Notes: a model not told the origin generated them from the letters alone. A DNA stretch of 45,376 nucleotides from a virus (IMGVR_UViG_3300009095_000003:1-45376); one strand, 5' to 3'. Counted from the stretch's first letter, positions 3,945-45,376 are shown. Numbers and translations: made by a program.

Positions 3945-4294
3945 TCGAGAAACAATGATTTTCATATATTCACTTGACTATCAATCCTTTATACTTTGGC
4001 CCTTGGGGCCGGAAACAATAAGAAACGACTATTGTTTCTCGATAACCAATTGAGAATGAATAGATTGCGGCCAAAAATCGTCCTCGAGAAACAATAGGAA
4101 CAATTTTCCCATATAAGGCTATATGGCAATAACGCGTTTATTTTATTCAATTTTTTCAATATTATCTATTTTAAACTGTTTTATATATATTATTGTTTCT
4201 ATTGTTTACACCAGATATAAAGGATTATAAATCAATAACTTATGGTATGTTTTCGTGGAAACAATCATTGTTTCCATTGTTTCTCATTGTTTCC
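3945..4294. repeat. Iteron-rich non-coding element, copy A (origin-like)
   Basis: GAAACAAT/ATTGTTTC boxes at 3949, 4012, 4031, 4088, 4097, 4192, 4201, 4258, 4267, 4276 and 4286 around an AT-rich core; homologous to 25248-25575. Confidence 0.9.
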
Positions 4295-6602: not shown

Positions 6603-7457
6603 TTATCTTAAGTTAAATTTTTGTTTTAATTCTATAATGTCTGCTTCTTCTTGGGCAAGCATAGTCTCATATAAACCCATGTCTATTCTGCTCGTTATTT
6701 CGTTTTCGCAAAGGTTTATTAATTCTCTTGGTGGCAGAGCATCAAGCTCCCAAGAAGTATAACCCCATTGGTTAATATACCAGTCTGCTCTTGGGTCTGA
6801 GATTTTAGCGGGGTTTGGTGGTGGATTGAAATTCTTAATCTGCTCCATTGTTAAAGCCACAGGTACAACATTGACTTCAATTCCAAAGCCTTCCAGGCGT
6901 TCACGGATATCGCGTATCATGTCCAAACCACTTGGGTCATGGTCACCAAAGTAAAGAATAGTATCACCTGTCTCAAGTCTTCTATATGCGTCGTACATAG
7001 CTGAGCAAGAGCTATACCCACGATTAACCATTAGCCTAATATGATACTTATGTGTAACACGAGCAAGCACATTAGATAAAGCATCTTTCTCAACCCAGAC
7101 TTCAATTTTATTGTCTTGTCCTTTCATACGGTCAAGCCTGTATTGGCTTATAGTATCTTGGATTGCATCAGGTATACCATGAACCCAATATGGAATTTGT
7201 GGCTTACGAACACGGTCCTCAATAGCATCCCAATCTACTATTCCAGCCATGCGGCCTTTCTTAAGAATATTGCTTAAACGCACATATTCAATTTGCTTAT
7301 TTGGAATAACATCCCGAGATACCAATTGGTAATACAGCTGACGAAGAGTCAAGACGTAGCCATCAGCAACGTACTCTTCCAAAATGCTGTTGATTAACTC
7401 AAGCCGTTCTTTGTTGGCTTTGTTTAGTCTGAGTTTGTGGTCAAATGCTTGTTTCAT
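6603..7457 (-). CDS. Topoisomerase VI-A/Spo11-like TOPRIM protein
   Basis: LRQLYYQL winged-helix Tyr motif, VWVEKDAL, GYSS, YFGDHDPSG, WELDAL. Confidence 0.8.
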   Translation of the reverse strand: MKQAFDHKLRLNKANKERLELINSILEEYVADGYVLTLRQLYYQLVSRDVIPNKQIEYVRLSNILKKGRMAGIVDWDAIEDRVRKPQIPYWVHGIPDAIQDTISQYRLDRMKGQDNKIEVWVEKDALSNVLARVTHKYHIRLMVNRGYSSCSAMYDAYRRLETGDTILYFGDHDPSGLDMIRDIRERLEGFGIEVNVVPVALTMEQIKNFNPPPNPAKISDPRADWYINQWGYTSWELDALPPRELINLCENEITSRIDMGLYETMLAQEEADIIELKQKFNLR

Positions 7458-9637: not shown

Positions 9638-9713
9638 TGTTATTTGATATTGCTAAAGTACAAAGTCTTTCCGAAACAGAAAAATATTTTTATAAAAAGT
9701 TTAAAATTATTTT
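9638..9713 (-). promoter_or_regulatory. Repeated early-type promoter element (upstream of UvrD)
   Basis: 76 bp, 3 mismatches to 17514-17589; AAAAATATTTTT-N19-TACTTTAGCA on the minus strand. Confidence 0.8.
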
Positions 9714-9715
9714 TT

Positions 9716-9743
9716 AAAAAAGGGAGATTTATTGCCTCCCTTT
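9716..9743 (-). terminator. Intrinsic terminator
   Basis: AAAGGGAG/CTCCCTTT stem followed by a T-run on the minus strand at the end of the DUF3310-like gene. Confidence 0.7.
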
Positions 9744-9968
9744 CAATTCTTCAGCTTTATCAAGATACCATTTTTCTTTCTTAAGCTCTTGGTCTACTGC
9801 ATCTTTGTGGCCAAGTCTCATTCGATATTTGAAAGCTGTTATTAAACAGTATTGCCTTACTGCTTCTTTCCCAAATATAGCAATCATCATATCAATAGCT
9901 TCTATTGGATATTGCTTATAGTGGTCAGGATTTATCTGGTCTTTTTTACCGTCCATAGCTTGAGTCAT
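9729..9968 (-). CDS. DUF3310/SaV-like protein
   Basis: INPDHYK...IEAID...KYRMRLGHK...ELKKEKWY; ATG 9968 preferred. Confidence 0.85.
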   Translation of the reverse strand: MTQAMDGKKDQINPDHYKQYPIEAIDMMIAIFGKEAVRQYCLITAFKYRMRLGHKDAVDQELKKEKWYLDKAEELKGRQ

Positions 9969-10632
9969 TTTGAAGATAGAATTTTTTATCAGCGTAATAA
10001 TGTCTTTCATATACATGCATATCTGCAGCATGATGATAATACCAACCTACTGGCAAATCTAGTTCAGAGGCTACATGTTCTTGAAGCTTTGAGAAACAAT
10101 ATTGGTCATTACAAAAGCCGAACCAAATGTCATTGCTTCTCATGAACACACTCATACAAAGCTTATTGTTTTCAATAGTAAATCCAATGCTTAAAGTGCA
10201 TGGAGTATCTTTTGAAAACTCATCTTTATTTTTACCGTCGAATATAGTTATCCAGGCTCGTCTAGTCAAAGGGTCTTTTCTTAACTGCTCAATTGTTTTT
10301 TCCAATTGACCTTTTTCTGACCACAGATACCCATAGTTGCTGTTAACAATATTATCTCCGTTGTGCATTCTGTCCCAAATAGGAGCAAATTTTTTAAGCT
10401 CTTCTACTGAGCGATTTTTTGAGAGATACCATTCCCATTCACGTTCAGCGTAGGTTTTACTCCAGTTTCTCCATTCCGCTGAAATATCTCTATTTAAAGG
10501 GTTAGTGATGTAGAAGCCTACATTATGCAGCTTCTTTGTCCCATTGCCTGTTTCAATACCATTTTTGCAAAGCTCTGCAAAAACGATACTGAAAGCAATG
10601 TTTGCTGAGTTGAAGTGTTCTCCTTTAAACAT
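9946..10632 (-). CDS. Thymidylate-synthase-family enzyme, dCMP hydroxymethylase-like
   Basis: SNYG, D..TRRA, DTPCT catalytic Cys, MRSNDIWFGFCND, HVYERH; Asp rather than Asn at the base-specificity position, as in T4 gp42. Confidence 0.8.
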   Translation of the reverse strand: MFKGEHFNSANIAFSIVFAELCKNGIETGNGTKKLHNVGFYITNPLNRDISAEWRNWSKTYAEREWEWYLSKNRSVEELKKFAPIWDRMHNGDNIVNSNYGYLWSEKGQLEKTIEQLRKDPLTRRAWITIFDGKNKDEFSKDTPCTLSIGFTIENNKLCMSVFMRSNDIWFGFCNDQYCFSKLQEHVASELDLPVGWYYHHAADMHVYERHYYADKKFYLQNDSSYGR

Positions 10633-10638
10633 AATCTT

Positions 10639-11088
10639 TTAATTTAATCCAGTTGAACCAAAACCTCCTTCTCCGCGCTCGGACTCAAGAACATCAGGCC
10701 CAGTGAAAAGCTCATCTTCTGCAACTTCTTCTACATCCGCATAAGAAACTGGTACGAGTACCATTTGCACAAGCTTTTGGCCAGCCAAGATAGTTGTCGC
10801 AGTATCGCTTACATTTGTAACATGGATATGAATTTCACCTTGGTAGTCTTCATCAATTACACAAGCCCCGACTTGCAATCCTTGTTTAGTTGCGACTCCG
10901 GATTTATTAAACGCAATTAAGGCAAAGCCTTTTGGAAGCTTAGCTTTGATACCACTTGGGATAAGTGCGGCTTCTCCTGGCAAAAGCTCTGTCTCAAGCA
11001 TATTGTTTGGAGTGTAAAAATCTAATCCAGCAGACGCTGCTGTACCTCTCGATGGGAGTTTTACGTCTTTAATTCTTGCTATTTTCAT
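10639..11088 (-). CDS. dut: Trimeric dUTPase
   Basis: AGLD, KSG, VIDEDYQGEI, QMV, RGEGGFGSTG. Confidence 0.95.
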   Translation of the reverse strand: MKIARIKDVKLPSRGTAASAGLDFYTPNNMLETELLPGEAALIPSGIKAKLPKGFALIAFNKSGVATKQGLQVGACVIDEDYQGEIHIHVTNVSDTATTILAGQKLVQMVLVPVSYADVEEVAEDELFTGPDVLESERGEGGFGSTGLN

Positions 11089-11099
11089 TTGTTCTAATT

Positions 11100-11148
11100 T
11101 TTGATATTGCTAAAGTAAACTATTAAATTGAATTATAAAAATAATTTC
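11100..11148 (-). promoter_or_regulatory. Repeated promoter element, degenerate copy (upstream of dut)
   Basis: TGCTAAAGTA at 11108-11117 with AAAAATAATTT 19 bp away. Confidence 0.7.
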
Positions 11149-11156
11149 ATTAAAAT

Positions 11157-12065
11157 TTAAAAATATTTTTCAAAGTCTCTTAAGTCATTCCAATCTCTAT
11201 ACGAGTCAATTGTATCAGCAGAGATTGTAGGTTTAGGAGCATTCCCTGCTACGTTGAAAAACCAAGCACCTTCTGAAGAATGTTCCATAAAGTAGTGGTA
11301 AGCCTTTGCATCGTATTTAGGTTCTGTCTCAAACTCTAAAGGAATATAATCACTCAATTTAGAGAACTCTTTGTGGTATGACATAAACCTAGCGCGCCCA
11401 AGCTCGCCCTGTTGAATGTTTCTTGCAACGGCAACGGCAACAAAGTCCGTATCTGGAAGAGCAATCTGAAGCGTTCTGGATAGTACTCCTGTGGACATAG
11501 CCGACCACATTTCTTTTGGTTTTGGAATATCTTGAAAAAATTCGTATACCTGTCTAACCCCACACGCAATGACTTCTTCATGATAAAGTCCTAGCGGTAC
11601 ATAATAAGCTCCAGTAGCTTTAGAATATTTCTTGGCCAGCGAGTTAGCATTTGGCATAGCAGCAACTCTGGCGAATAAAGGTTTTGCTCCTAGCTCAATA
11701 CATAAGAGCTGATGAGGGCTAACCTGTTTTGATGATGGCATCACTAAAGTAAGTTCCAAGCCGTACTTCTTGCAAAGGTAGGCCAATGAAATTCCTGCAA
11801 ATCCTTGTCTAGGTTGAACGTATACAACTTCAGATACTCCTTCAGAAGCTAAGTTGGAAATTAACATTTCACCAGCTCTTGCTTTGTAACCTACTTCACA
11901 TGAAGTTGACTCATCGATTATAAATCTGCCATTAAATTCAATAACGTCAAAAGGCTTAAAAGAACTCTTAAATCCTTCTGAAATTTTTAAATAGTAGGCT
12001 AGTGTTTTTTCAGAAGTCAAGTCTTTGTTCTCGACTCCTATCTGCTTGTTTTCAAATAGTCCCAT
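11157..12065 (-). CDS. PLP-dependent enzyme, fold type II (Trp synthase beta / Cys synthase-like)
   Basis: GYKAR (candidate Schiff-base Lys), QPRQGFAGISLAYLC, YYVPLG, AMSTGVL phosphate loop. Confidence 0.8.
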   Translation of the reverse strand: MGLFENKQIGVENKDLTSEKTLAYYLKISEGFKSSFKPFDVIEFNGRFIIDESTSCEVGYKARAGEMLISNLASEGVSEVVYVQPRQGFAGISLAYLCKKYGLELTLVMPSSKQVSPHQLLCIELGAKPLFARVAAMPNANSLAKKYSKATGAYYVPLGLYHEEVIACGVRQVYEFFQDIPKPKEMWSAMSTGVLSRTLQIALPDTDFVAVAVARNIQQGELGRARFMSYHKEFSKLSDYIPLEFETEPKYDAKAYHYFMEHSSEGAWFFNVAGNAPKPTISADTIDSYRDWNDLRDFEKYF

Positions 12066-12066
12066 A

Positions 12067-13122
12067 TCAGTTAAGTAATTTCTTAATGTATTCCGAATAG
12101 TCTTCTCCAGACAAATCGCAATACTGTTTTATCGTAGAATTGTTAGCGTAAGTTTTTCCACCGTTCTTAGCAATGTGGTCTTTGGATTGAAATTCGTACA
12201 GGTATCTGTAAACATCACACATCCTTGAGTCTTCTACTGAATAGGGTACAGAATTGTAACGCTCCGCTATGAAGTTTATTGCTTCTATTTCAAAGTCTAA
12301 TTGCTTAATGCCTGGCTTCTTGTTGAACATCGCAGAAATACACTTTTTAGCGTTTGTTCCAGCGTATATGCTTGACTTTTGGTCAATAAGATTAGGAAAA
12401 TATTCAGCTATGTCTGCTGCGGTTGCCGATAGCACAAAATTTTGTCTTTTAAAACCCTTAGAAACTAAATAGACGTTCATAGAGTCGACAAAATCGATTA
12501 TCCCTATTCTACCATTGCCTAGCAAATCTTGCATCTTAGAAACAATCCCACGTATTTCTGTGAGAATAAAATTCTTAAGATGGCCAGAAGTTAAATGTTT
12601 GTAACTGACTTGAGGCAGTAAATATCCTTTATTATTTGTGAAAGGTGTTTCTCTAACTTCTAAATCTAGTAGCCAATCATCTAGCTTTAAATCACCTTTA
12701 AGCCAACTTTCTACTATCCAGAAATTACCAAATCCGTGAGTCCCGAAAGGATTTCCTGTAGTATTTGGAACGTAATTAATCCCGCTTCCGCAAAGCCTAA
12801 ATAGATAAAATAAAGCTAAAGCATCTTCGATTTCTAAATCTGATAAGGATGGAGCTTCAAGAAAGTGCAATCCGTTTTTCTTAGGGTCATTTTCTTTTTT
12901 GTCGATAGCTTCCAAGAATGAGCAGAATGCTGCGTATCTTCTGTCTAGCATATCATAAATAGGAACGTGAAAAATTAAATCGTCGTTGACTTCTTTTTGA
13001 AGTTTTTGCAAATCTAAATTATTAGGATTTCCATCGTATAAGTAGTTTTGCATTGCTAAGCTTTTTACGTGGTAGTCGTCTATCGCTTCTAATATTTGGT
13101 CATTTATGCTAAAATATTTCAT
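12067..13122 (-). CDS. aGPT-PPase / 5-hmdU DNA kinase-like helical DNA-modifying protein
   Basis: Motif order DDLI...YD..DR, LFRL, ADIAEY, AGTNAKKCI, EDSRMCD..RY parallels the DPIL..N..R..DR, FR.F, DL.Y, AGPGA, EH.LCE..KY pattern I recall for this family; context also fits. Confidence 0.6.
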   Translation of the reverse strand: MKYFSINDQILEAIDDYHVKSLAMQNYLYDGNPNNLDLQKLQKEVNDDLIFHVPIYDMLDRRYAAFCSFLEAIDKKENDPKKNGLHFLEAPSLSDLEIEDALALFYLFRLCGSGINYVPNTTGNPFGTHGFGNFWIVESWLKGDLKLDDWLLDLEVRETPFTNNKGYLLPQVSYKHLTSGHLKNFILTEIRGIVSKMQDLLGNGRIGIIDFVDSMNVYLVSKGFKRQNFVLSATAADIAEYFPNLIDQKSSIYAGTNAKKCISAMFNKKPGIKQLDFEIEAINFIAERYNSVPYSVEDSRMCDVYRYLYEFQSKDHIAKNGGKTYANNSTIKQYCDLSGEDYSEYIKKLLN

Positions 13123-14075
13123 GGGATAAAAGTTTCTTTGAACATATAATATTTAGGAGCTAAGTGCACGGATTGTCTAGCTTCCATGTAACTAAAATCA
13201 AGCTCTCCTAGTAAATTTGTCATGTCTGGCCATTTCAATAGCTTGAAGTTATTTCTATCACAAATCGTTTCTAATTTATCGTTGAAATAGTTTCTAACAG
13301 CGTTTCTCATAGCCCAGTCTCCATGGAAAGGTTTTCCTTCAAAATACCCAGTTTTCGGTAGTCTACGGCTTTCATTTTCGATAGGTAAAAGTTCAACTAA
13401 TTCTATTGAGTTGACCCTGTCTAGCAATAAATCTGAAAGCTGAGCTTCTAAATTCCCAATCATTTTATCTACCGCTTCGAAAACTTCATCTTCCGTGAAT
13501 AGCCTACAAAGGTGGTGCCGTACATCTATGTTTCCTGCGTACATTCTAAAAATTTCGATTTCACCTTCAGGAATAAAAGACTCAATTCCTTCTGTTAAAA
13601 ATCCATGCAATGTTTTTCCGTCATTCCTACTTAGGCCAAATCCTTTCTCATAGACGCTCAGAGAATGGCTGTCTCCTATAATAAATTTAGAATTGATAAA
13701 ATCATCTTCCGTGATTTTAATCGTCTCAGGCATGGTGAAAACAAGTTCTGAAATTCTTTTTTGGACTAACCCAGTGTAGTCTATTGTTTCCGGTCCAAAA
13801 CTGTAAACTTTCCCTAAAAAAGAATGTAGGCATTTAAGATTTTCTATAAGCTTGTCAGATACTCCACCAAATAAATTGTAAGTGCCTTCTCTGAAGTTTA
13901 CGCCTTCTGTCAAAACTATAGCGTCAAAGTCTTCAGCTTCAGATATTTCTATGACCTCCACTTCGCTTTTGAAAAATTCTTCTAATCTTGATTTAGCGTA
14001 AAAGGTATATCCAGCATTGTGGCTGGATAACCTAGTACTAGGTTTCCCTAGTACTCCAGTTAATCCAATTTTCAT
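13119..14075 (-). CDS. Uncharacterised enzyme with an SGNH-like C-terminal domain
   Basis: Start at ATG 14075 (MKIGL); IIGDSHS, GKTL, AGNID and QSVH fall in SGNH block order. Confidence 0.6.
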   Translation of the reverse strand: MKIGLTGVLGKPSTRLSSHNAGYTFYAKSRLEEFFKSEVEVIEISEAEDFDAIVLTEGVNFREGTYNLFGGVSDKLIENLKCLHSFLGKVYSFGPETIDYTGLVQKRISELVFTMPETIKITEDDFINSKFIIGDSHSLSVYEKGFGLSRNDGKTLHGFLTEGIESFIPEGEIEIFRMYAGNIDVRHHLCRLFTEDEVFEAVDKMIGNLEAQLSDLLLDRVNSIELVELLPIENESRRLPKTGYFEGKPFHGDWAMRNAVRNYFNDKLETICDRNNFKLLKWPDMTNLLGELDFSYMEARQSVHLAPKYYMFKETFIP

Positions 14076-14076
14076 A

Positions 14077-14793
14077 TTAGTCTTGTATTTCTTCTGCGGT
14101 TTCTGCCTCAGCTTTTTTCTTAGCTTTTTTCTTAGCTTTTTCTTCTTCTTTAGCTTTTTGAGCAGCTGCTCTTTCTTCTGCCACTCTTGCAGTTTCTTCT
14201 TCATTGATAACTACTGAGCTGTTGTAAATGCTAGTGTGGTAAAGCTTTCCAGTTGATAACTCATGGACTCTAAAATAAATTCTATTCACTCGAGTATCAA
14301 CAACAACCTGCTTAATTTCTGCAGTAATTGTTTCACCCTTTCTGAAAGAGCTGAACTCAATTACTTTGCCAATATTCACTCTCATCTCTTTAGCTATATC
14401 TAAAGCATCGCCTAGCGAGATTTTTTCCTTAGGTTCTTTTACAGATTTAGCTTTTTTCTCTTTCTTAGGAGCTTCAACTGCTTCTTCATCTGTTTCTTCT
14501 TCAGTTGACTCACCGACAGATACGCCTCGAGACTCAAGAACAGATTTGATAAGCTCAGCCTGAACGCCTGTTGATTTGTCAAATGCTGCAACCAATGCTT
14601 TGCTTGCTTTTTTCTTAAGACTCGAAGCAGTGACTTCAGTAACCTCAAGATTTTCCATAAATTCTGCGTCTACTTCTTCCGTTGCACGGTTTAAGAAGTC
14701 AACTTTTTCTTCGCTTTCATTAGCAGCAATTACATTTCCGTTTTCTAAAACGATTTCCATTTGTCCGTTAAACTCAAAAAATTTAGCTTTCAT
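14077..14793 (-). CDS. Highly charged hypothetical protein
   Basis: 238-aa Glu/Lys/Ala-rich ORF directly after a promoter repeat. Confidence 0.8.
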   Translation of the reverse strand: MKAKFFEFNGQMEIVLENGNVIAANESEEKVDFLNRATEEVDAEFMENLEVTEVTASSLKKKASKALVAAFDKSTGVQAELIKSVLESRGVSVGESTEEETDEEAVEAPKKEKKAKSVKEPKEKISLGDALDIAKEMRVNIGKVIEFSSFRKGETITAEIKQVVVDTRVNRIYFRVHELSTGKLYHTSIYNSSVVINEEETARVAEERAAAQKAKEEEKAKKKAKKKAEAETAEEIQD

Positions 14794-14825
14794 CTTTTTT
14801 AATTTTAAATTGTTAATCTGTTATT

Positions 14826-14901
14826 TGTTATTTGATACTGCTAAAGTACAAAGTCTTTTTGAAACAGAAAAATATTTTTATAAAAAATTTAAAATTATTT
14901 T
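14826..14901 (-). promoter_or_regulatory. Repeated early-type promoter element
   Basis: 76 bp, 1 mismatch to 17514-17589. Confidence 0.8.
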
Positions 14902-15203
14902 ACGCTGTCGCTAAAATCAAATTCCAGCTGCTTACCTACTTCATTGCCTTCCAAGTAGTTATTCATCGCACCCATATATGCAACGGCATCTAATAAATTA
15001 TCTTCTTTATGCGCATGGGCCTCTCTGGATAACTTCAGAGCAATCATTGATTGGTACATGTGTTTTGTATCAAGTTGCAATCCGGTCATCGCATTGAAGA
15101 TGTCTCTCATCTTATCCATTGACTCGTTGAATGAGCCGTATTGTCTGTTTTTCTCTTCTGAGCGCTGATTAACTATTTCATCAGCTTTTTTTAGGATGTT
15201 CAT
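14895..15203 (-). CDS. DUF6378-like all-alpha protein
   Basis: ILKKADEIVN.R...YG...MIALKLSR...EDNLLDAVAY. Confidence 0.75.
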   Translation of the reverse strand: MNILKKADEIVNQRSEEKNRQYGSFNESMDKMRDIFNAMTGLQLDTKHMYQSMIALKLSREAHAHKEDNLLDAVAYMGAMNNYLEGNEVGKQLEFDFSDSVK

Positions 15204-15214
15204 ATCTATAAATT

Positions 15215-15622
15215 TTAAATTAATATTTTATCAACTTCAATGCCTGCTTTCTTTAGCAAGTCAATGCCTTCTGTCAAACGAAAATCTTCAGCATATACAA
15301 CTCTCTTAATTCCTGACTGTATAATAAGCTTTGAGCATTCAATGCATGGCGATACTAAAGTATAAATCGTTGCATCTTTACTGCTATTATTAGACTGAGC
15401 CAATTTAGTAATAGCATTTGCCTCAGCATGCAAAACATACTGCTTCGTATTTCCATTTTCGTCTTCACATTCATTTTCAAAACCTCGTGGAGTGCCATTA
15501 TACCCATCAGCTATAATGGTATTGTCTTTAACTATGATAGCGCCTACCTTCAAACGTTTTGCGTGAGAATTTTCTGCCCATATCTGAGCAATTTTCAAAT
15601 ATTGAATATCATGCTTTGACAT
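15215..15622 (-). CDS. dCMP deaminase
   Basis: KVGAIIV, GYNG, HAEANAI and PCIEC zinc motifs. Confidence 0.93.
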   Translation of the reverse strand: MSKHDIQYLKIAQIWAENSHAKRLKVGAIIVKDNTIIADGYNGTPRGFENECEDENGNTKQYVLHAEANAITKLAQSNNSSKDATIYTLVSPCIECSKLIIQSGIKRVVYAEDFRLTEGIDLLKKAGIEVDKILI

Positions 15623-17513: not shown

Positions 17514-17589
17514 TGTTATTTGATATTGCTAAAGTACAAAGTCTTTTTGAAACAGAAAAATATTTTTATAAAAAATTTAAAATTATTTT
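17514..17589 (-). promoter_or_regulatory. Repeated early-type promoter element
   Basis: TGCTAAAGTA at 17527-17536 and AAAAATATTTTT at 17556-17567. Confidence 0.8.
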
Positions 17590-19973
17590 CAATCTATTTT
17601 TCTGACGTAGTATTTCTGCTTACCATAAAGCTTGAAACTTCTTGTGGATTTGCATTGCTCCCAGTTCTCCAAACTTCTCAAAATATCATTTATTTCACGA
17701 GTCTTATAGCGGTCCATATCTTCACGGTTCTTGCCTAAACACTCGCACCATATTTCAGCAACACAGACGTAGTCACGCTCAACAGTTCCATTGGCAGCAA
17801 GTGGGTCATCCAAAAATGCACGGCGTTCGTACAAGTCTAAGGAGTCCCAATCAACAGGCAACAATCTATCAAGATAATTCTCAATAATACCTGAGCGCTC
17901 ATCGTTTTCACTGTGCTCACGCTGTTCATGTTCTGCTATGATTTTAGCATCTTCACTTAAAAACAGTGGTTCGCCTTTCTTATACATAACCATTGCCTCA
18001 GCCCAAATTTGGTCAATCTCGCTTTCAGTTAAATCGTCAAAAACACTTTTAGTTGCTCTTTCAATCACAACGTCAATTGGGTTAAACCGTCTATTTCCTG
18101 ACGGGTCTCTTAAGAATGCTGGATTGTTCGTAGTTCCAAAGAATACGCATTGACGCGGATATGTTTCTGAAGTTCTTCCGTAAGCTGGTCTGAATGTATC
18201 TTCTTGCTTTGAGATAAAATGCTTGACCGCTTCAACTTCAACTTTACGAAGTCCTGATAGTTCAGCCATTTCAATTAGCCATGCACCTTGTATCTGTTCA
18301 AGTGCTTCTTTTCCTTGTACGGTTAAAAAGGTATCACTGAACCACTCTTTTCCCAACTTCTTAATAAATGTACTCTTACCGCAACCCTGATTTCCAACAA
18401 GTGTAAGTACTAAGTCAAACTTGCATCCTGGCTTCATGATACGAGCAACAGCTCCAACAAGCATTTTTCTTATAGCTTCTTTTGAATAAATATTGTCGTC
18501 GGCTCCAAAATAATCAATAAGTAAATTGTCGACTCTTTCTTCACCGTCCCATTCAAGGCTGCGCAAATAATCGATGATTGGGTGAAAGCCATTTTTCTCA
18601 AATTCCAAATTCATCGTATCTTCAATTTTAAGGGTCCCAGAAATGCCATAAATACTTTCAATATAGTTACGTACTCCAGAAAAATCTACGTTCTTCACAG
18701 GCTCAGGTTTCAAGACTTTTCTCCATGGCAGATTACCAAATACGTAGTTCTTGTTGTCAAATCTGTTTTGTTTGAATAAACCTCTTAGGCGAATATCATT
18801 TGCAAATATTAAATTAAGGTTTACAGCTGATGAAACGTATTTACCGCGAGCATCAAGCTCAAGGTCTTGCATCCAATCAATGTCTTCGCCTTCAAGTTGC
18901 TCGTAGTCTAAATCTTCAATGAAGTCATATTTTGCATCCGCTATATTCTCAGAAGCTATAATCTTTTTGACTTCTTTGTCCTCTCTCGCATACTCTTCCA
19001 TAGCTTTAAAGCTCTGTTGCTTTGAGCCGTGGAGTTCTGTGTTTTCGCTATCTAGATGGCCAAATTTGTGAATGCGTACAAGGTCAAAGGCATTGCATAA
19101 TTTTCCGCTACATGGGTCAGTACCGTGATGAGAAAAAGCAAATTTGTCATCATATATGATAAGCCCAGCAGCAGTTGTACCTTTGCAATATGTATATCTG
19201 CCATCTCCGGCTGGCGTATAAATTTCGCTTAAGAATTTTTCAATAGCTTCAGTTACTGAGTACGTTCTACAGAATGCACCAACTACTCCTTTTTTATTTT
19301 CAGGGTCTTCTTGCTTTTCGGCTGACGTTTTTATCTTTTGAATTTGGTTGGTGCTTGTAGGCCATAGACTCGAGTCTGTCCAATCTGTATATGTCGCCAG
19401 AACCTCATCTGCATCCACCCAAGGACCATCTTGGAAACGGAAGTAATAATCTATGTCCTTAGGATTTGATGGCCAGAACATGAGTCTATTAGGTTCAAAT
19501 GTAGTATTATCAAATAAGTCAATATTCAATAGTCCAGCTATCCGTCTTGCAATTGCTACGTATTCGTCAGGAGTAACTTCACGACTTATAGGCATTACCA
19601 GCCTATAGCGAGGACTTGTCTCGTGGTGCTTATGAGAAGAATGTAGAACAGCAGCATTTTCAAACTGCATTTGGAAGTCATCCCAAAATTCACCGTGAGC
19701 AAAATCAATATCTAAAGTCAAAAGCTGTTTGTGAACGATATTCTCAGGCTTACGTCTACCTTGTCTAAGGTAACCACCAACATATCCACCAACATCCTTT
19801 ATTTTACTCTGCTCATCTTTAGTAGCAGCAATATATTCCTTAAATGTTTCTGTTGTCTTATGCTCTTCCGATAATCTCTGAACTAATTCTGACCACTGAA
19901 ACTTTTTATTTTTCCAAATTTTGGATTTCGCTGACATGCCTACGGCTATGTCTAAAGTACCGTCAAATTTCAT
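17589..19973 (-). CDS. Primase fused to VirE/VapE-family helicase
   Basis: N-terminal LDID/HSSHKH/PRYRL prim-pol-like motifs; GNQGCGKST, EMAEL, GTTN, DPSGNRRF. Confidence 0.92.
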   Translation of the reverse strand: MKFDGTLDIAVGMSAKSKIWKNKKFQWSELVQRLSEEHKTTETFKEYIAATKDEQSKIKDVGGYVGGYLRQGRRKPENIVHKQLLTLDIDFAHGEFWDDFQMQFENAAVLHSSHKHHETSPRYRLVMPISREVTPDEYVAIARRIAGLLNIDLFDNTTFEPNRLMFWPSNPKDIDYYFRFQDGPWVDADEVLATYTDWTDSSLWPTSTNQIQKIKTSAEKQEDPENKKGVVGAFCRTYSVTEAIEKFLSEIYTPAGDGRYTYCKGTTAAGLIIYDDKFAFSHHGTDPCSGKLCNAFDLVRIHKFGHLDSENTELHGSKQQSFKAMEEYAREDKEVKKIIASENIADAKYDFIEDLDYEQLEGEDIDWMQDLELDARGKYVSSAVNLNLIFANDIRLRGLFKQNRFDNKNYVFGNLPWRKVLKPEPVKNVDFSGVRNYIESIYGISGTLKIEDTMNLEFEKNGFHPIIDYLRSLEWDGEERVDNLLIDYFGADDNIYSKEAIRKMLVGAVARIMKPGCKFDLVLTLVGNQGCGKSTFIKKLGKEWFSDTFLTVQGKEALEQIQGAWLIEMAELSGLRKVEVEAVKHFISKQEDTFRPAYGRTSETYPRQCVFFGTTNNPAFLRDPSGNRRFNPIDVVIERATKSVFDDLTESEIDQIWAEAMVMYKKGEPLFLSEDAKIIAEHEQREHSENDERSGIIENYLDRLLPVDWDSLDLYERRAFLDDPLAANGTVERDYVCVAEIWCECLGKNREDMDRYKTREINDILRSLENWEQCKSTRSFKLYGKQKYYVRKID

Positions 19974-21944: not shown

Positions 21945-21964
21945 TTTTTATATTTTTTGTTTTG

Positions 21965-22060
21965 TGGGTGAAAGAGGACTCGAACCTCTATGCAGTTATT
22001 TTCATGTGCTATTACCTGCGTCCTGCTCTAGGATATGCCTACCAATTACATCATTCACCC
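21965..22060 (-). ncRNA. tRNA-like RNA (class II / Leu-like body, aberrant anticodon arm)
   Basis: Acceptor GGGTGAA/TTCACCC + A; D arm ATG-TAATTGGTAGG-CAT; T arm AGAGG-TTCGAGT-CCTCT; anticodon arm only TCCT-AGAGC-AGGA; long variable arm GCAG...CTGC. Confidence 0.75.
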
Positions 22061-22062
22061 AG

Positions 22063-22096
22063 ATAAAAATAAAGGCTTCCTAAAAAGCCTTTATTT
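22063..22096 (-). terminator. Intrinsic terminator after the SSB gene
   Basis: 12-bp stem AAATAAAGGCTT/AAGCCTTTATTT with a T-rich tail. Confidence 0.75.
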
Positions 22097-22116
22097 GATT
22101 TTTGATTTTCTAAAGA

Positions 22117-22665: not shown

Positions 22666-22717
22666 GTTATTTGATAGTGCTAAAGTACACATTTATTTTT
22701 AATCTAAAAATATTTTT
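22666..22717 (-). promoter_or_regulatory. Repeated promoter element (upstream of SSB)
   Basis: TGCTAAAGTA at 22678-22687; AAAAATATTTTT 18 bp away. Confidence 0.75.
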
Positions 22718-22739
22718 TACTTTTTTTTGAAAATATTTT

Positions 22740-23915
22740 TTAATCTTTGAAGTCTAATTTTGCCTGCTCCACTCCCATGGCTGGGCGTTTATCGCTTTCA
22801 GGCACTAATGTAGGAGCACCTGAAGGCTTGACTATGAACTCGTTAAGCTTAGGTCCGAAATTAGCTTTTCCAACTAGTTTTTCAATCGCTGATATGCCGG
22901 CTAATTTTGTTACCATATACTTATCTTCGTCATAGTCTTCTTTAAGCACCTCAATGACTTTATTTTCATCAAGCCATTTACGATTGCTTCTTCCTTCTAC
23001 GAGCTTATATCCAGGCCATTGTTTTCCTTTTTTAGCTTCATCAAGTACATAAGAACTTACAGAGCTTGCCCAGTCCTGAAATACTGACAATTGACCATAT
23101 ATCTCTAAGACTTCTTTATCTGATAAGACATGAGGGTCCTGAAACTCAAAAGCCGCAAGCTTCATATTCTCATTGGCTAAGCCTCGACAAACAGCTTTCG
23201 CTTTACAGAACTTGCACCATTCTCCAGGAGTCTGTTCACCTTCGCCAGCATAAGCTTTCAATGCTTTTGGTTTTACTTCATTTTCACCCCAAGCAATTAA
23301 GTCTTCTACTGATATTTCCCAAGTTGATACGTGGTCCAATCTAGGTTGAACAATAGTCAATCGGACTGTATGAATATCGTAAAGCAATTCGTATTCTCTA
23401 AGGGCACCAGAGCCATACAGTTTCAATTGAGGATTTTCTTCTGCATCTACCTTGACGCCTTTGCCATACTTTAGGTCTATGACATCCAGAACACCGTCAG
23501 CAATAATAACGTTATCGCCTGTACCAAAACCTTGCTCAACTAGATGTGAGAAGTCAAGTCGTTGCTCTACAAGCATAACAGCGTCAGGATTTTTCTGCTT
23601 CGCTACGTTGTAAGCTTCCATAACTATTTCAACATACTTTGCAACCTCCGGTTCCATTTCAGTTGAATACAGTTCATGCTTACGAAGTTTAGCAATCTCA
23701 GAGTTATACACCTTTTTGGATATTAGCCCAAGTTTGTGGCGTATTTCTATATCGCCAAACTCGTGCGCCAAAGTACCTTCGTCAGCGTATACTGAACGCT
23801 TCTCTTCAAAATTCTCTTCGAGTCTGGCACTAGGCGTACAGTTCATCCATCTCGAAGCTCCGGAAGCAGACAGAAGCGCATGCTTCCGAGCAGAATGATT
23901 AACAGCTTTTGCCAT
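22740..23915 (-). CDS. DUF2800 Cas4-like PD-(D/E)XK exonuclease
   Basis: HALLSASGASRWMNC, EGTLAHE, FGTGD, IDLKYG, QLKLY, WCKFCKAKAVC. Confidence 0.92.
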   Translation of the reverse strand: MAKAVNHSARKHALLSASGASRWMNCTPSARLEENFEEKRSVYADEGTLAHEFGDIEIRHKLGLISKKVYNSEIAKLRKHELYSTEMEPEVAKYVEIVMEAYNVAKQKNPDAVMLVEQRLDFSHLVEQGFGTGDNVIIADGVLDVIDLKYGKGVKVDAEENPQLKLYGSGALREYELLYDIHTVRLTIVQPRLDHVSTWEISVEDLIAWGENEVKPKALKAYAGEGEQTPGEWCKFCKAKAVCRGLANENMKLAAFEFQDPHVLSDKEVLEIYGQLSVFQDWASSVSSYVLDEAKKGKQWPGYKLVEGRSNRKWLDENKVIEVLKEDYDEDKYMVTKLAGISAIEKLVGKANFGPKLNEFIVKPSGAPTLVPESDKRPAMGVEQAKLDFKD

Positions 23916-24756: not shown

Positions 24757-24806
24757 TTTTGACAGTGCTAAAGTAGATACTTTTTCCGAGATTAAAAAAT
24801 ATTTTT
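24757..24806 (-). promoter_or_regulatory. Repeated promoter element (upstream of the HTH gene)
   Basis: TGCTAAAGTA at 24766-24775; AAAAATATTTTT 19 bp away. Confidence 0.75.
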
Positions 24807-24822
24807 ACTAAAAAAATAAAAT

Positions 24823-25152
24823 TTATTTTCTCAACATATCTTTTTGAAAGCGCAATCCTTCTTCTGGTGTGTAGGTATACGGAGCATCTGCAGGTATTAT
24901 GTAAATCCTGTCGCGAATTAATGCCTCAGCTTCAGTATGGAAAAAATCCTTTGCTACATGAGTCTGTACATGCTCGATTAAAAATCGGCCTTCTTTGAAC
25001 AGTATGAAATACTTGTTTTGGTTGAAGTTGTTAGACTCACTTGGCACATCAGTAATAACAGGTGTTTCTGGTTCTGCAGGAAAATAATCGTCGTCTTTTG
25101 TGCAAGCAGTAGCCAATATGACTACTGCTGAAATTAATAGTATTTTTTTCAT
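24823..25152 (-). CDS. Lipoprotein, probably surface exposed
   Basis: MKKILLISAVVILATA-C signal II followed by TKDDD. Confidence 0.85.
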   Translation of the reverse strand: MKKILLISAVVILATACTKDDDYFPAEPETPVITDVPSESNNFNQNKYFILFKEGRFLIEHVQTHVAKDFFHTEAEALIRDRIYIIPADAPYTYTPEEGLRFQKDMLRK

Positions 25153-25172: not shown

Positions 25173-25222
25173 ATTTGATAGTGCTAAAGTACTATGTTTC
25201 CACCAAACTTAAAAATATTTTT
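25173..25222 (-). promoter_or_regulatory. Repeated promoter element (upstream of the lipoprotein)
   Basis: TGCTAAAGTA at 25182-25191; AAAAATATTTTT at 25211-25222. Confidence 0.75.
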
Positions 25223-25247
25223 GTATTTATTTTAAAAATTATTTTCT

Positions 25248-25575
25248 GTAAACAATCCAATTATCTCAAAATCAATAGGTTAGAGCTAAAAATAAATTTA
25301 AGAAACACTAAAATCTAGCATTGTTTCTCCGTAACCTATTGCATTCCAATTATTTAGTCTCAAAAATCGTCCTCGAGAAACAATAGGAACAATATTCCCA
25401 TATAAGGCTATACGCGATTATTACGTTTTTTTATATACTATTTTTTCAATATTATCTATTTTAAAGTGTTTTATATATATTATTGTTTCTATTGTTTACA
25501 GAGCATCTAAGTGTAATGATTATCAATCTCTTACACCAGAAACAATCATTGTTTCCATTGTTTCTTATTGTTTCT
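25248..25575. repeat. Iteron-rich non-coding element, copy B (origin-like)
   Basis: Blocks 25361-25412, 25440-25500 and 25539-25574 match 4072-4123, 4150-4210 and 4258-4293 with one mismatch each. Confidence 0.9.
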
Positions 25576-43841: not shown

Positions 43842-45376
43842 ATTCTTTAAATTTATCTGTTATTATTTCGATTTTCCTGTAAAACGGTAAATTTACACCA
43901 AATTCTAATATGTTCGTATTTTCACGCTCAAATCTTCTGACAAAACTACTAAAATTTATTTTAATAATAAAGTCTTCTTGATTAATTAGATTTTTTTCAT
44001 ATAAATTTATAGCTTCATCACGGGTAAAATGCTTATACGTCTCTAATTCAGCTAACACAAGCATACGCTGTAACTGAGTAGGATTGTGCCTGTATTCTGT
44101 TTCAAGAATTTGATTTTGCAAAGCATCTAATTCTGCTTCACTCGCACCGCTCTCTTTTGCTATCTTGTATTGAGTTCTCAAAGTTTGAGGGTTCAACACA
44201 TAGAACTCAGTCCCAAGATTGATGTCAGCAGATATGAAAGAAGCTCCGTATCTCAACCGACAAACCGTCTCATCGACAAAATTCTGCGCTTCTTCAAAAC
44301 CTTTCTTAATTCTGTTCAGAATAGTACTTTGGTTTTCAAAGTTAGCATTGACCTGCATCTCATTGATAGCTTGGTCGTTTATAGCACCACCGTCAACACC
44401 GCACACAGCGTTTATAATTTCATTTCTAAGACGCTCCTCTTCTTCTACATTATAATCCAATGACGATTTGTCAATAGATAGTATCTGAACAGGGTTACGC
44501 AAATCTGGGTCGTCTTTGGTATCAGGCACAGGCACCTCAACAAATGAACCAACGCCAGCGATACGCTTATCACCACATTTTGGGCATCTGCATAAAGCTC
44601 CAGAACTATCAAGCAAATACAAACCATCTCTGTTCTTCAAAAATCCACCGTCGCATTCGTCGCCTGTCTCAGTGTTTGAAAAGTTACAATCCTGTTCATA
44701 ACCTGAGTAAATAGGATAAGCCCCATATAAATCAAGGTGACGCTTAGAAGTATGGAAGAACAAAAACCAATCCAACGACTCGAGCATCTTAGATAGTGGA
44801 TGAGACTTAACTTCTTGGTCTTTCAGCGACAATGGCTCATTCCAAAAGAAACGAGCAGGACAATAACCGAGGTCATGGGGATTGTCAACAACAATATCGG
44901 TTATTAAATCGTTCTTAGAATTAAACAGCCTATAGCTTGCGTCATCCAGAACCGCGATTTGGTCATCCTTTTGCCTGAATATAATATAGTCCATGTTACC
45001 TGTCTTCTCATTGACACTATAATCGATTATGCGGTCTATAGTTAGCCAATAGAAGTATGGTTGTGGATAAGGGTCAGAAGCATCTTGCTCAACGGCCAAA
45101 TCAACTACAAGAACTGAATTTATTTCGGTCTTAAAGTATTCCCAGCCATCAGTCTGCCAAACAGCAGGCTCTTTCAATACGTTCTGTCTATACCATTCCC
45201 AATCGTCTCTTTGTTCAGGATTTAGGAATTGATAGTTGAATGCTGGATTGCGGCCATCGAATACACGGCTAAGCTTATCAAAAATTATTCCAGTAATCTC
45301 ATTAGTCTTAACGGGGTACCGGAATAATGTTTTGAAAATTTTAGCTTTGTCATGCGGTATAAGAGTTTGAACCCAC
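43807..45376 (-). CDS. Portal protein (574 aa in total; starts at 278 across the circular join)
   Basis: Frame is open to the window end; size and position before scaffold and capsid fit a portal; Cys-rich insertion. Confidence 0.8.
   Translation of the reverse strand, partial: WVQTLIPHDKAKIFKTLFRYPVKTNEITGIIFDKLSRVFDGRNPAFNYQFLNPEQRDDWEWYRQNVLKEPAVWQTDGWEYFKTEINSVLVVDLAVEQDASDPYPQPYFYWLTIDRIIDYSVNEKTGNMDYIIFRQKDDQIAVLDDASYRLFNSKNDLITDIVVDNPHDLGYCPARFFWNEPLSLKDQEVKSHPLSKMLESLDWFLFFHTSKRHLDLYGAYPIYSGYEQDCNFSNTETGDECDGGFLKNRDGLYLLDSSGALCRCPKCGDKRIAGVGSFVEVPVPDTKDDPDLRNPVQILSIDKSSLDYNVEEEERLRNEIINAVCGVDGGAINDQAINEMQVNANFENQSTILNRIKKGFEEAQNFVDETVCRLRYGASFISADINLGTEFYVLNPQTLRTQYKIAKESGASEAELDALQNQILETEYRHNPTQLQRMLVLAELETYKHFTRDEAINLYEKNLINQEDFIIKINFSSFVRRFERENTNILEFGVNLPFYRKIEIITDKFKEYANENRQRPTD
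45254..45376. repeat. Terminal direct repeat / circular overlap, identical to 1-123
   Basis: Direct comparison of the two ends. Confidence 0.97.

Follow-up and report, generated by a model that had tools for sequence, protein, structure and literature searches.

In the phages ViI and M6, which make 5-(2-aminoethoxy)methyl-deoxyuridine (5-NeOmdU) and 5-(2-aminoethyl)-deoxyuridine (5-NedU), and in PaMx11, hypermodified DNA bases are described as the work of enzyme sets that share a hydroxymethylase of the thymidylate synthase (TS) family, an HhH protein of the aGPT-PPlase superfamily with a Glu...Cys motif, and a pyridoxal phosphate (PLP)-dependent decarboxylase (PMC8989533, PMC11472151). Counterparts of all three, including the lysine of the decarboxylase, are encoded in a gene cluster of the viral contig IMGVR_UViG_3300009095_000003, a stretch of 45,376 nucleotides that we refer to as the window. 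Unlike ViI, M6 and PaMx11, the window has a cytosine-type synthase, no P-loop kinase for 5-hydroxymethyldeoxyuridine (5-hmdU), no radical S-adenosylmethionine (SAM), flavin or GNAT gene, and a single HhH gene of no assigned clade. It also encodes a hybrid of the beta-glucosyltransferase (BGT) N-terminal domain and an SGNH domain that occurs in none of the three.

Cytosine is hypermodified in T4, where gp42 and BGT (PF09198) produce glucosylated 5-hydroxymethylcytosine (hmC). The window has the gp42-type residues and the glucosyltransferase N-terminal domain in common with T4, but SGNH replaces the sugar-donor domain, the equivalent of BGT D100 is poorly kept and no gp1-type kinase or gp56-type dCTPase is recognised. 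The hmC carbamoyltransferase that forms 5-carbamoyloxymethyl-deoxycytidine (5cmdC; PMC8670742) puts an acyl-type group on the hydroxymethyl of hmC and lies in the same genomic slot in two related phages (L158 and L160), although its fold is unrelated and it works in a single step with no HhH or PLP partner. RB69, DLP3 and RL38JI, which carry glycosylated 5-hydroxycytosine, start like the window from an N177D synthase, but theirs is also D169N and is accompanied by glycosyltransferases, whereas the window keeps D169 and has no glycosyltransferase (PMC13326640).

The window cluster most likely contains a real and conserved four-gene cytosine hypermodification pathway, which works like the ViI and M6 pathways and is not a member of them. 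In the literature covered, amino acid hypermodifications are all on thymidine and kinase-dependent, and cytosine decorations are sugars or carbamoyl; the cassette predicts an amino acid-type cytosine and an enzyme architecture not found there. That literature, which does not extend to Iyer et al. (2013), where such clusters may be predicted, yielded no description of this gene set. SGNH is unmentioned in the hypermodification papers scanned, the main text of PMC8670742 is without aGPT, PALP, pyridoxal or GDSL, and, in the sections covered, PMC5539321 holds no modification data and PMC8056088 and PMC13216743 add nothing further. The core genes are as follows; the last three are referred to below as the trio.

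9946..10632, minus strand: dCMP hydroxymethylase-type TS homologue (D142, C145, D168 and D176 equivalent to E. coli 143, 146, 169 and 177)
11157..12065, minus strand: fold-II PLP enzyme, homologous to the DNA-acting decarboxylase M6 gp52 (Pfam PALP, E 3.7e-11; phrog_7093, E 5.5e-23)
12067..13122, minus strand: 351-aa HhH-glycosylase-fold protein of the aGPT-PPlase superfamily, candidate amino acid:DNA transferase (model pLDDT 94; VIA; Atlas)
13119..14075, minus strand: 318-aa hybrid of a BGT N-terminal domain and an SGNH domain (AlphaFold pLDDT 91; hhalign; VIA)

Domains and residues of the core enzymes

With a profile built from 17 relatives of the window synthase, the dCMP hydroxymethylase T4 gp42 ranks first among solved structures (E 1.2e-33, compared with 4.7e-25 for E. 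coli ThyA). The positions described as diagnostic for this family associate Asp 177 with dCMP, an acid at 143 with hydroxymethylation and Asn 169 with hydroxylation, the position-143 rule being a correlation (PMC13326640). The window synthase has D142, D168 and D176 together with the catalytic C145, which is the hmC signature. D176, which the initial annotation had singled out as a cytosine-type Asp, does align with T4 gp42 D179, whereas the dUMP hydroxymethylase M6 gp58 carries Asn at 177. From these residues we infer that the product is 5-hydroxymethyl-dCMP. The D143/D169/D177 signature is kept in all 61 synthases of the cassette loci defined below and in all 80 of the nearest synthase loci. 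Two other identities were rejected: a 5-hydroxy-dCMP synthase of the RB69 type needs D169N, and the window has D168, as do all 61 cassette synthases at the equivalent position; and a canonical ThyA is present as a separate gene in 8 of the 80 cassette loci.

The hybrid starts at 14075, as a longer open reading frame (ORF) from 14204 reads into the upstream gene. Its residues 127-313 adopt an SGNH fold in the AlphaFold model (VIA Z 13.9, root-mean-square deviation (rmsd) 2.8-4.3 over 154-175 aligned residues; Foldseek E 2e-5), which confirms the earlier SGNH-like call; that call had missed the BGT-like domain in the same protein. D135, S136, H137, E298 and H304 are invariant in 125 rows (the query and 124 of 150 representatives, of 290-380 aa, the other 26 having been dropped), with G153 at 81% and N182 at 88%. 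The SGNH acid is E298 in an ExxxSxH motif, unlike the usual DxxH, and both hydrolases and transferases are among the structural matches of the domain.

Residues 1-94 are homologous to the T4 BGT N-terminal domain, as judged from sequence profiles, with the domain seen within the whole-protein model alone. The hhalign score to BGT rises from 90.6% with the T4 sequence to 95.5% with six BGT sequences and 97.7% (E 2.4e-12) with a deeper alignment; 40 column shuffles gave at most 2.8%, and three unrelated alignments 0.2%. The BGT profile in turn matches 18 of the 150 hybrid representatives (E up to 0.05), 17 of them N-terminally. In BGT the NxFGG loop (N70, F72) flips the base and D100 is the catalytic base. 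N67-x-F69-G-G of the hybrid aligns with BGT N70-F-F72-G-G, and N67 is kept in 96% of the 125 rows. The UDP-glucose-binding C-terminal domain of BGT is not in the hybrid; the alignment to BGT ends near residue 95-99, and residues 127-313 are SGNH. The architecture thus reads as a putative base-acceptor domain joined to a putative acyl-donor domain. BGT is absent from the listed fold matches of the whole hybrid model, where the SGNH domain filled the listing; the N-domain gave no usable feature match in Atlas and, by structure search, unnamed viral clusters and flavodoxin-like folds only; and a PDB sequence search with the SGNH alignment returned nothing useful. The hybrid is matched by 472 clusters at 50% identity. 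In one 981-aa protein (P0188) the hybrid is fused to both an FkbM-type methyltransferase and a PF18723 domain.

The 351-aa protein has an all-helical HhH model and 379 homologues. Its VIA matches include QNG1 (Z 9.6), OGG (Z 8.2) and PaMx11 gp46 (Z 8.1; rmsd 4.4, 210 aligned residues), and glycosylases, QNG1 or PaMx11 gp46 account for 21 of the 22 highest-ranking rows. PF18723 is found on 10-36% of the members of its Atlas neighbours and is commoner there than PF18724; within the family, PF18724 is matched by none of 67 members and PF18723 by two, below the cut-off. E297, D298 and C302 are invariant in 67 rows, with E297 and C302 as the Glu...Cys pair of the C-terminal helix. In PaMx11 gp46, C247 is described as attacking C6 and E243 as binding a metal (PMC11472151); counting back from the alignment ends (model residue 313, chain residue 258) suggests that C302 would be in register with C247 if the helix is gap-free. 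Profile comparison of the family with M6 gp51, M6 gp55 and 44RR ORF233c gave no significant match, and neither tblastn of the protein against 50,697 phage records nor a single-sequence locus search found a match. At the level of fold the protein is aGPT-PPlase-like, as first proposed, and each cassette, like the window, has a single such gene. The kinase-like half of the same call falls away, since the protein is all-helical HhH: the 5-hmdU kinases that have been characterised belong to the P-loop proteins (Table 1 of PMC8989533), and the 351-aa protein was rejected as a kinase.

The PLP enzyme falls in the phrog family that holds M6 gp52 and aligns with gp52 itself in hhalign (95.4%, E 2e-8). 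Its K61, invariant in 23 rows, aligns with gp52 K36, described as the aldimine lysine (PMC8989533). A PDB sequence search with the PLP alignment gave nothing useful. A different setting for the PLP family is seen in phages of Erythrobacter and Microcystis, where its members adjoin an N6/N4 DNA methyltransferase domain or are fused to it (L004:2326-4764, L005:6201-7792).

A search of the complete genome found no P-loop kinase gene and no match to M6 gp54, a very distant kinase without Walker A being possible. The window has four Walker-A matches, which fall within the UvrD, exonuclease and primase genes and, for the plus strand, inside the SNF2 gene. No kinase is found within 1.5 kb of the cassette genes in the 80 cassette loci. 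The earlier remark that neither a deoxynucleoside monophosphate kinase nor a recognisable dCTPase is present holds for the complete genome, so that substitution may be partial.

Conservation of the cassette and its exchange

Cassette loci were taken as the best 80 of 217 viral contig stretches that encode the HhH family, chosen by the 351-aa gene alone; they collapse to 26 groups at 90% identity and 9 at 70%. The 31 with at least 2 kb on both sides are termed well covered. PLP is present in 78 of the 80, SGNH in 76 and the synthase in 61, and each of the six PLP or SGNH absences falls at the end of a contig. The gene order is SGNH-HhH-PLP in every locus that has all three (74/74), and the association of the trio genes is far beyond chance. 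SGNH and HhH are fused in 8 of the 150 hybrid representatives, as well as in L007 and L204, and the hybrid is fused to PF18723-type domains in two more, among 14 long representatives scanned. In two cassette loci the synthase lies a little further off, beside a P-loop kinase and a Nudix gene. The initial annotation would have been undermined by unrelated folds together with a failure of the three enzymes to co-occur with TS homologues; we find that the folds match and that the genes co-occur with Asp-type synthases.

Loci centred on the synthase (the best 80 of 172, some contigs being common to both locus sets) have a core of DUF6378, slot, synthase and MazG, with a MazG-type pyrophosphatase in 69. 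The slot beside the synthase holds the trio (HhH in 31, PLP in 32 and SGNH in 27 of the 80), a SAM methyltransferase, or nothing. The methyltransferase occurs in 15 of the 80, none of them with the trio (p 1.6e-4, uncorrected for kinship). Within the compared DNA, much of it short, the trio is in none of 80 phages related to the window by the SNF2 gene. Many of these phages encode the deaminase, DUF6378, the charged ORF and the dUTPase, and their slot is filled by other modification genes. Because the slot alternates between the trio, the methyltransferase and other modification genes beside shared neighbours, the trio is a swappable tailoring module. The cluster had been presented as one nine-gene pathway. 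Four of its genes form the core; the other five recur in relatives lacking the trio, and a single nine-gene pathway was rejected.

The slot methyltransferase is of class I (L185:5785-6549, L117:14216-14995 and L154:9329-10168, in L154 with a PF18723 protein) and may methylate hmC to methoxymethyl-cytosine. In five other loci of related phages (L105, L107, L110, L113 and L123; for example, L107:4971-9409) the slot holds a dimeric-type dUTPase, a C5-methyltransferase-like gene and an Asp-type synthase, joined in most of them by an asparagine-synthetase-like gene, a set that is another candidate modification cassette. In Bacteroides phage BF486P2 (L003:3641-9669) and in L158 and L160, a carbamoyltransferase, a P-loop kinase and two Asp-type synthases form one cluster; the second synthase of L158 and L160 has Asn at 169, the 5-hydroxycytosine signature.

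Among the 50,697 phage records the hybrid is matched in 43, from phages of Aeromonas (38), Tenacibaculum (3) and Stenotrophomonas (2). In Aeromonas phage 44RR2.8t, which has an hmC-type gp42, the hybrid and a PF18723-like domain form a fusion. The Aeromonas hybrids end in LFAI or LFDI, like the LFDMFDI end of the 44RR polymerase, and we take this end to be a clamp-binding tail. Aeromonas phages 44RR, 31 and 25 all encode the hybrid. They are described as making hmC without a glucosyltransferase (PMC2993671, 2010), and the presence of the hybrid makes the question posed there testable. In 44RR2.8t a sodium:solute symporter gene that could import a substrate lies directly upstream of the hybrid-HhH fusion (L001:5408-9388). 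In phage 25 a mutase, a possible glycosyltransferase and a stand-alone hybrid take the place of the 44RR fusion (L345:78-3349), and an ORF of this locus has a weak BGT match only (8.9%).

Proposed pathway and competing explanations

The proposal of hmC-based hypermodification by aGPT-PPlase-like, PLP and SGNH-like enzymes held in each computational test, and we consider it quite probable that the trio decorates hmC in DNA with some amino acid or acyl group. Overall, the cassette would be a cytosine counterpart of the ViI and M6 thymidine pathways in which acyl priming takes over from phosphorylation. The synthase would make 5-hydroxymethyl-dCMP, as its diagnostic residues suggest; host kinases would convert this to the triphosphate, and the phage Pol A would incorporate it, possibly in part. 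Given the two observed domains of the hybrid, its BGT-derived part would then flip hmC out while the SGNH serine O-acylates the hydroxymethyl to create a leaving group. C302 of the HhH protein, whose fold and motif point this way, would add to C6, the carboxylate would be expelled, and an amino acid would join the exocyclic methylene through its side chain, with serine as the ViI precedent. Last, the PLP enzyme, given its homology, would remove the alpha-carboxyl, and a radical-SAM isomerase would not be needed.

Enzymes of the gp52 type are described as decarboxylating amino acid-base conjugates with a free alpha-amine (PMC8989533). Because decarboxylation needs this amine, it fits side-chain attachment, which leaves the alpha-amine free, and the lack of a radical-SAM gene makes side-chain attachment as in ViI the simpler route. 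The predicted product is an aminoalkyl ether or similar of 5-methylcytosine, for example 5-(2-aminoethoxy)methyl-dC, which would serve in nuclease protection. Folds, residues and gene linkage are the observed elements of this scheme, and every reaction in it is deduced. The order of acyl priming, displacement and decarboxylation is put forward tentatively, at a little under an even chance. We place at the same tentative level the wider proposal of a widespread phage class with amino acid-derived cytosine, in which a DNA-base O-acyltransferase would prime hmC by esterification for a new-clade, cytosine-specific HhH transferase and a PLP decarboxylase. If true, both the base and the activation chemistry on DNA would be new, and the result would be an enzymatic handle for hmC that needs no sugar and a new chemical shield against bacterial defences. 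The cassette is common, as the 217 contig stretches indicate, and an hmC acyltransferase or transferase could serve hmC labelling and sequencing.

Several observations weigh against this scheme. The pathway as a whole is read from sequences and models. For the 351-aa model Foldseek found no match at E 0.001, Z scores of 8-10 are modest for a helical protein, and the family scores 0.4% in hhalign with clade 2 (PF18724, the amino acid:DNA transferase clade) and 0.2% with clade 1, both represented by shallow alignments. The motif after its Cys resembles clade 1 (M6 gp55) more, and gp55 is described as dispensable in M6 lysates (PMC8989533). In the hybrid the equivalent of BGT D100 is partly kept, with Asp in 44% of rows at position 94 and 61% at position 99. 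The avoided restriction sites considered below contain C, as in GATC. One cassette lineage (L343) has a P-loop kinase adjoining its synthase. BF486P2, L158 and L160 hold this synthase clade plus a second Asp-type synthase, so that the product of the clade is not fixed by context. Among cultured phages, a PLP homologue was not found in 44RR2.8t; the hybrid of phage 25 lies beside a UDP-galactopyranose mutase with no neighbouring HhH gene; and in Tenacibaculum phage PTm1 the hybrid stands alone, with a D169N-type synthase and no HhH gene found. In phage 25 and PTm1, then, the hybrid occurs apart from any HhH partner, and this weighs against a role in priming alone.

The hybrid and the HhH protein could instead form one acyl-delivering unit, in which SGNH esterifies hmC with an amino acid-derived acyl group (such as aspartyl or glutamyl, linked through the side chain) to give an ester as the final base. 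The HhH protein would then only help to hold the DNA, while trimming of the ester-linked amino acid would fall to the PLP enzyme. Such a unit would parallel the kinase/clade-1 pairing of the thymidine pathways. The recurrent SGNH-HhH fusions, the clade-1-like motif, the preference of the Atlas neighbours for PF18723 over PF18724 and the single HhH gene per cassette all favour it, and hmC carbamoylation is a precedent for acyl-type capping (PMC8670742). The invariant E297, D298 and C302 look catalytic, which argues for a more active HhH protein, yet clade 1 keeps Glu and Cys too; and an ester would presumably be labile in virion DNA. We regard this explanation as unlikely, though deserving of weight.

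That the hybrid acts last rather than first is distinctly unlikely. The HhH protein would here condense an amino acid with unprimed hmC, the PLP enzyme would decarboxylate the conjugate, and the hybrid would acylate its amine or hydroxyl, or hydrolyse an ester. C5 methyltransferases can condense thiols directly onto hmC. A model for late acylation is PaMx11 gp48, an acetylating enzyme. A capping function would also suit the occurrence of the hybrid next to a sugar mutase in phage 25 and on its own in PTm1, with Ser and His intact; the PTm1 hybrid lacks E298. However, M6 gp51 is reported to have needed the kinase-made phosphate (PMC8989533), the N-domain derives from an enzyme whose substrate is unmodified hmC, and fusions join the hybrid to the HhH gene rather than the PLP gene.

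The initial annotation also offered 5-hydroxymethyluracil (hmU), reached through deamination of hydroxymethyl-dCMP, as the decorated base. The deaminase would convert hm-dCMP or hm-dCTP to the uracil form, hmU would replace thymine and the trio would make a thymidine hypermodification. In the systems described in PMC8989533, hmU is the base on which every characterised aGPT-PPlase and PLP partner acts. Deaminases are reported to lie commonly beside Asp-type synthases in cytosine-modified contigs, and some phage deaminases so placed act on 5mdC or 5hmdC nucleotides (10.1101/2024.12.05.627091). Against these precedents, the deaminase is missing from 11 of the 31 well-covered cassette loci and present in 2 of the best 80 of 172 synthase loci, and a MazG-type pyrophosphatase beside the synthase fits a dCTPase. 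We therefore find the hmU route weaker than it was offered, and very unlikely.

Site avoidance bears on the same choice. The window genome avoids GATC (1 occurrence, 112 expected), GAWTC (3, 83 expected), CATATG (0, 12 expected), GAATTC and GATATC, sites with A/T cores, and does not avoid GGCC, CCGG, AGCT or GASTC; GATC avoidance is seen too in relatives without the trio. NdeI is described as still cutting the cytosine-modified DNA of T4, RB69 and DLP3 (PMC7653180, PMC13326640). Among the 59 of the 80 SNF2 relatives with at least 12 kb, G/C palindromes are avoided less in 13 with an Asp-type synthase than in 46 others (median observed/expected ratio 1.05 and 0.81, one-sided p 0.006, with groups set by hand and kinship uncorrected). 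The ratio is 0.95 in the window, and these palindromes are indeed avoided (ratio <0.65) in 6 of the 37 cassette loci that span 12 kb or more. The overall pattern weakly supports a modified cytosine.

It is most improbable that the synthase makes 5-methyl-dCMP, partly for dTTP via the deaminase, and that the trio has a target other than hmC in DNA: although five of seven assayed deaminase-linked Asp-type synthases are reported to have made 5mdCMP (10.1101/2024.12.05.627091), and this synthase clade is often without a recognisable tailoring gene and in BF486P2 stands alongside a second Asp-type synthase, an acid at 143 correlates with hydroxymethylation (PMC13326640), all three trio enzymes have DNA-acting relatives and the LFAI/LFDI ends of the Aeromonas hybrids resemble the 44RR polymerase end.

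Accessory genes and genome setting

The remaining genes of the cluster, and the repeats that divide it, are as follows.

10639..11088, minus strand: accessory, trimeric-type dUTPase (Pfam E 3.3e-21), possibly with a dCTPase role
15215..15622, minus strand: accessory, dCMP deaminase family (Pfam E 5.8e-25)
14895..15203, minus strand: accessory, DUF6378 protein, a steady companion of the synthase clade (Pfam E 4.8e-12)
14077..14793, minus strand: lineage gene outside the cassette, charged 238-aa ORF, in 0/80 cassette loci, with homologues in related phages without the trio
9729..10031, minus strand: lineage gene outside the cassette, DUF3310 ORF (Pfam E 1.6e-13), in 0/80 cassette loci and in relatives without the trio
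14831..14904, minus strand: D2 promoter-like repeat, upstream of the charged ORF-SGNH-HhH-PLP block
11100..11173, minus strand: D2 promoter-like repeat, reference copy, upstream of dUTPase-synthase-DUF3310
9643..9716, minus strand: D2 promoter-like repeat just beyond the cluster, upstream of the UvrD-like helicase

All nine contiguous, co-oriented genes first listed were found as minus-strand ORFs, and Pfam bears out the dCMP deaminase, DUF6378, PALP, dUTPase, TS-family and DUF3310 calls; the charged ORF and the 318-aa and 351-aa proteins have no Pfam match at E 0.01. The dUTPase is in 41 of the 80 cassette loci and also in relatives without the trio. The deaminase, which probably feeds the dTTP supply, is in 44 of the 80 and in 20 of the 31 well-covered loci, and is common in relatives without the trio. 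DUF6378 is in 68 of the 80 cassette loci and in 49 of the 80 synthase loci, with or without the trio.

Bases 1-123 of the window recur exactly at 45254-45376, which marks it as a complete phage genome. Its genes for terminase, tail proteins, Pol A, primase, SNF2 and a UvrD-like helicase all lie on the minus strand. The nearest cultured match of its synthase is from a Bacteroides phage, which suggests a host in the Bacteroidota. The 74-nt D2 repeat family has seven genome copies, the three listed above and those at 17519-17592, 22670-22743, 24758-24831 and 25174-25247. Each is a promoter-like element upstream of a minus-strand gene block and, we assume, resembles Bacteroidota promoters; the three listed copies split the nine genes into three blocks.

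Elsewhere in the window, three non-coding blocks of 36-74 nt are repeated about 21.3 kb apart at 88-97% identity (4072-4293 and 25361-25574) and are possibly origin or regulatory regions. An intergenic stretch on the minus strand (21945-22116) is tRNA-like, with no ARAGORN call, and a 284-aa ORF (6603-7457) has a weak DUF2399 match (E 0.047).

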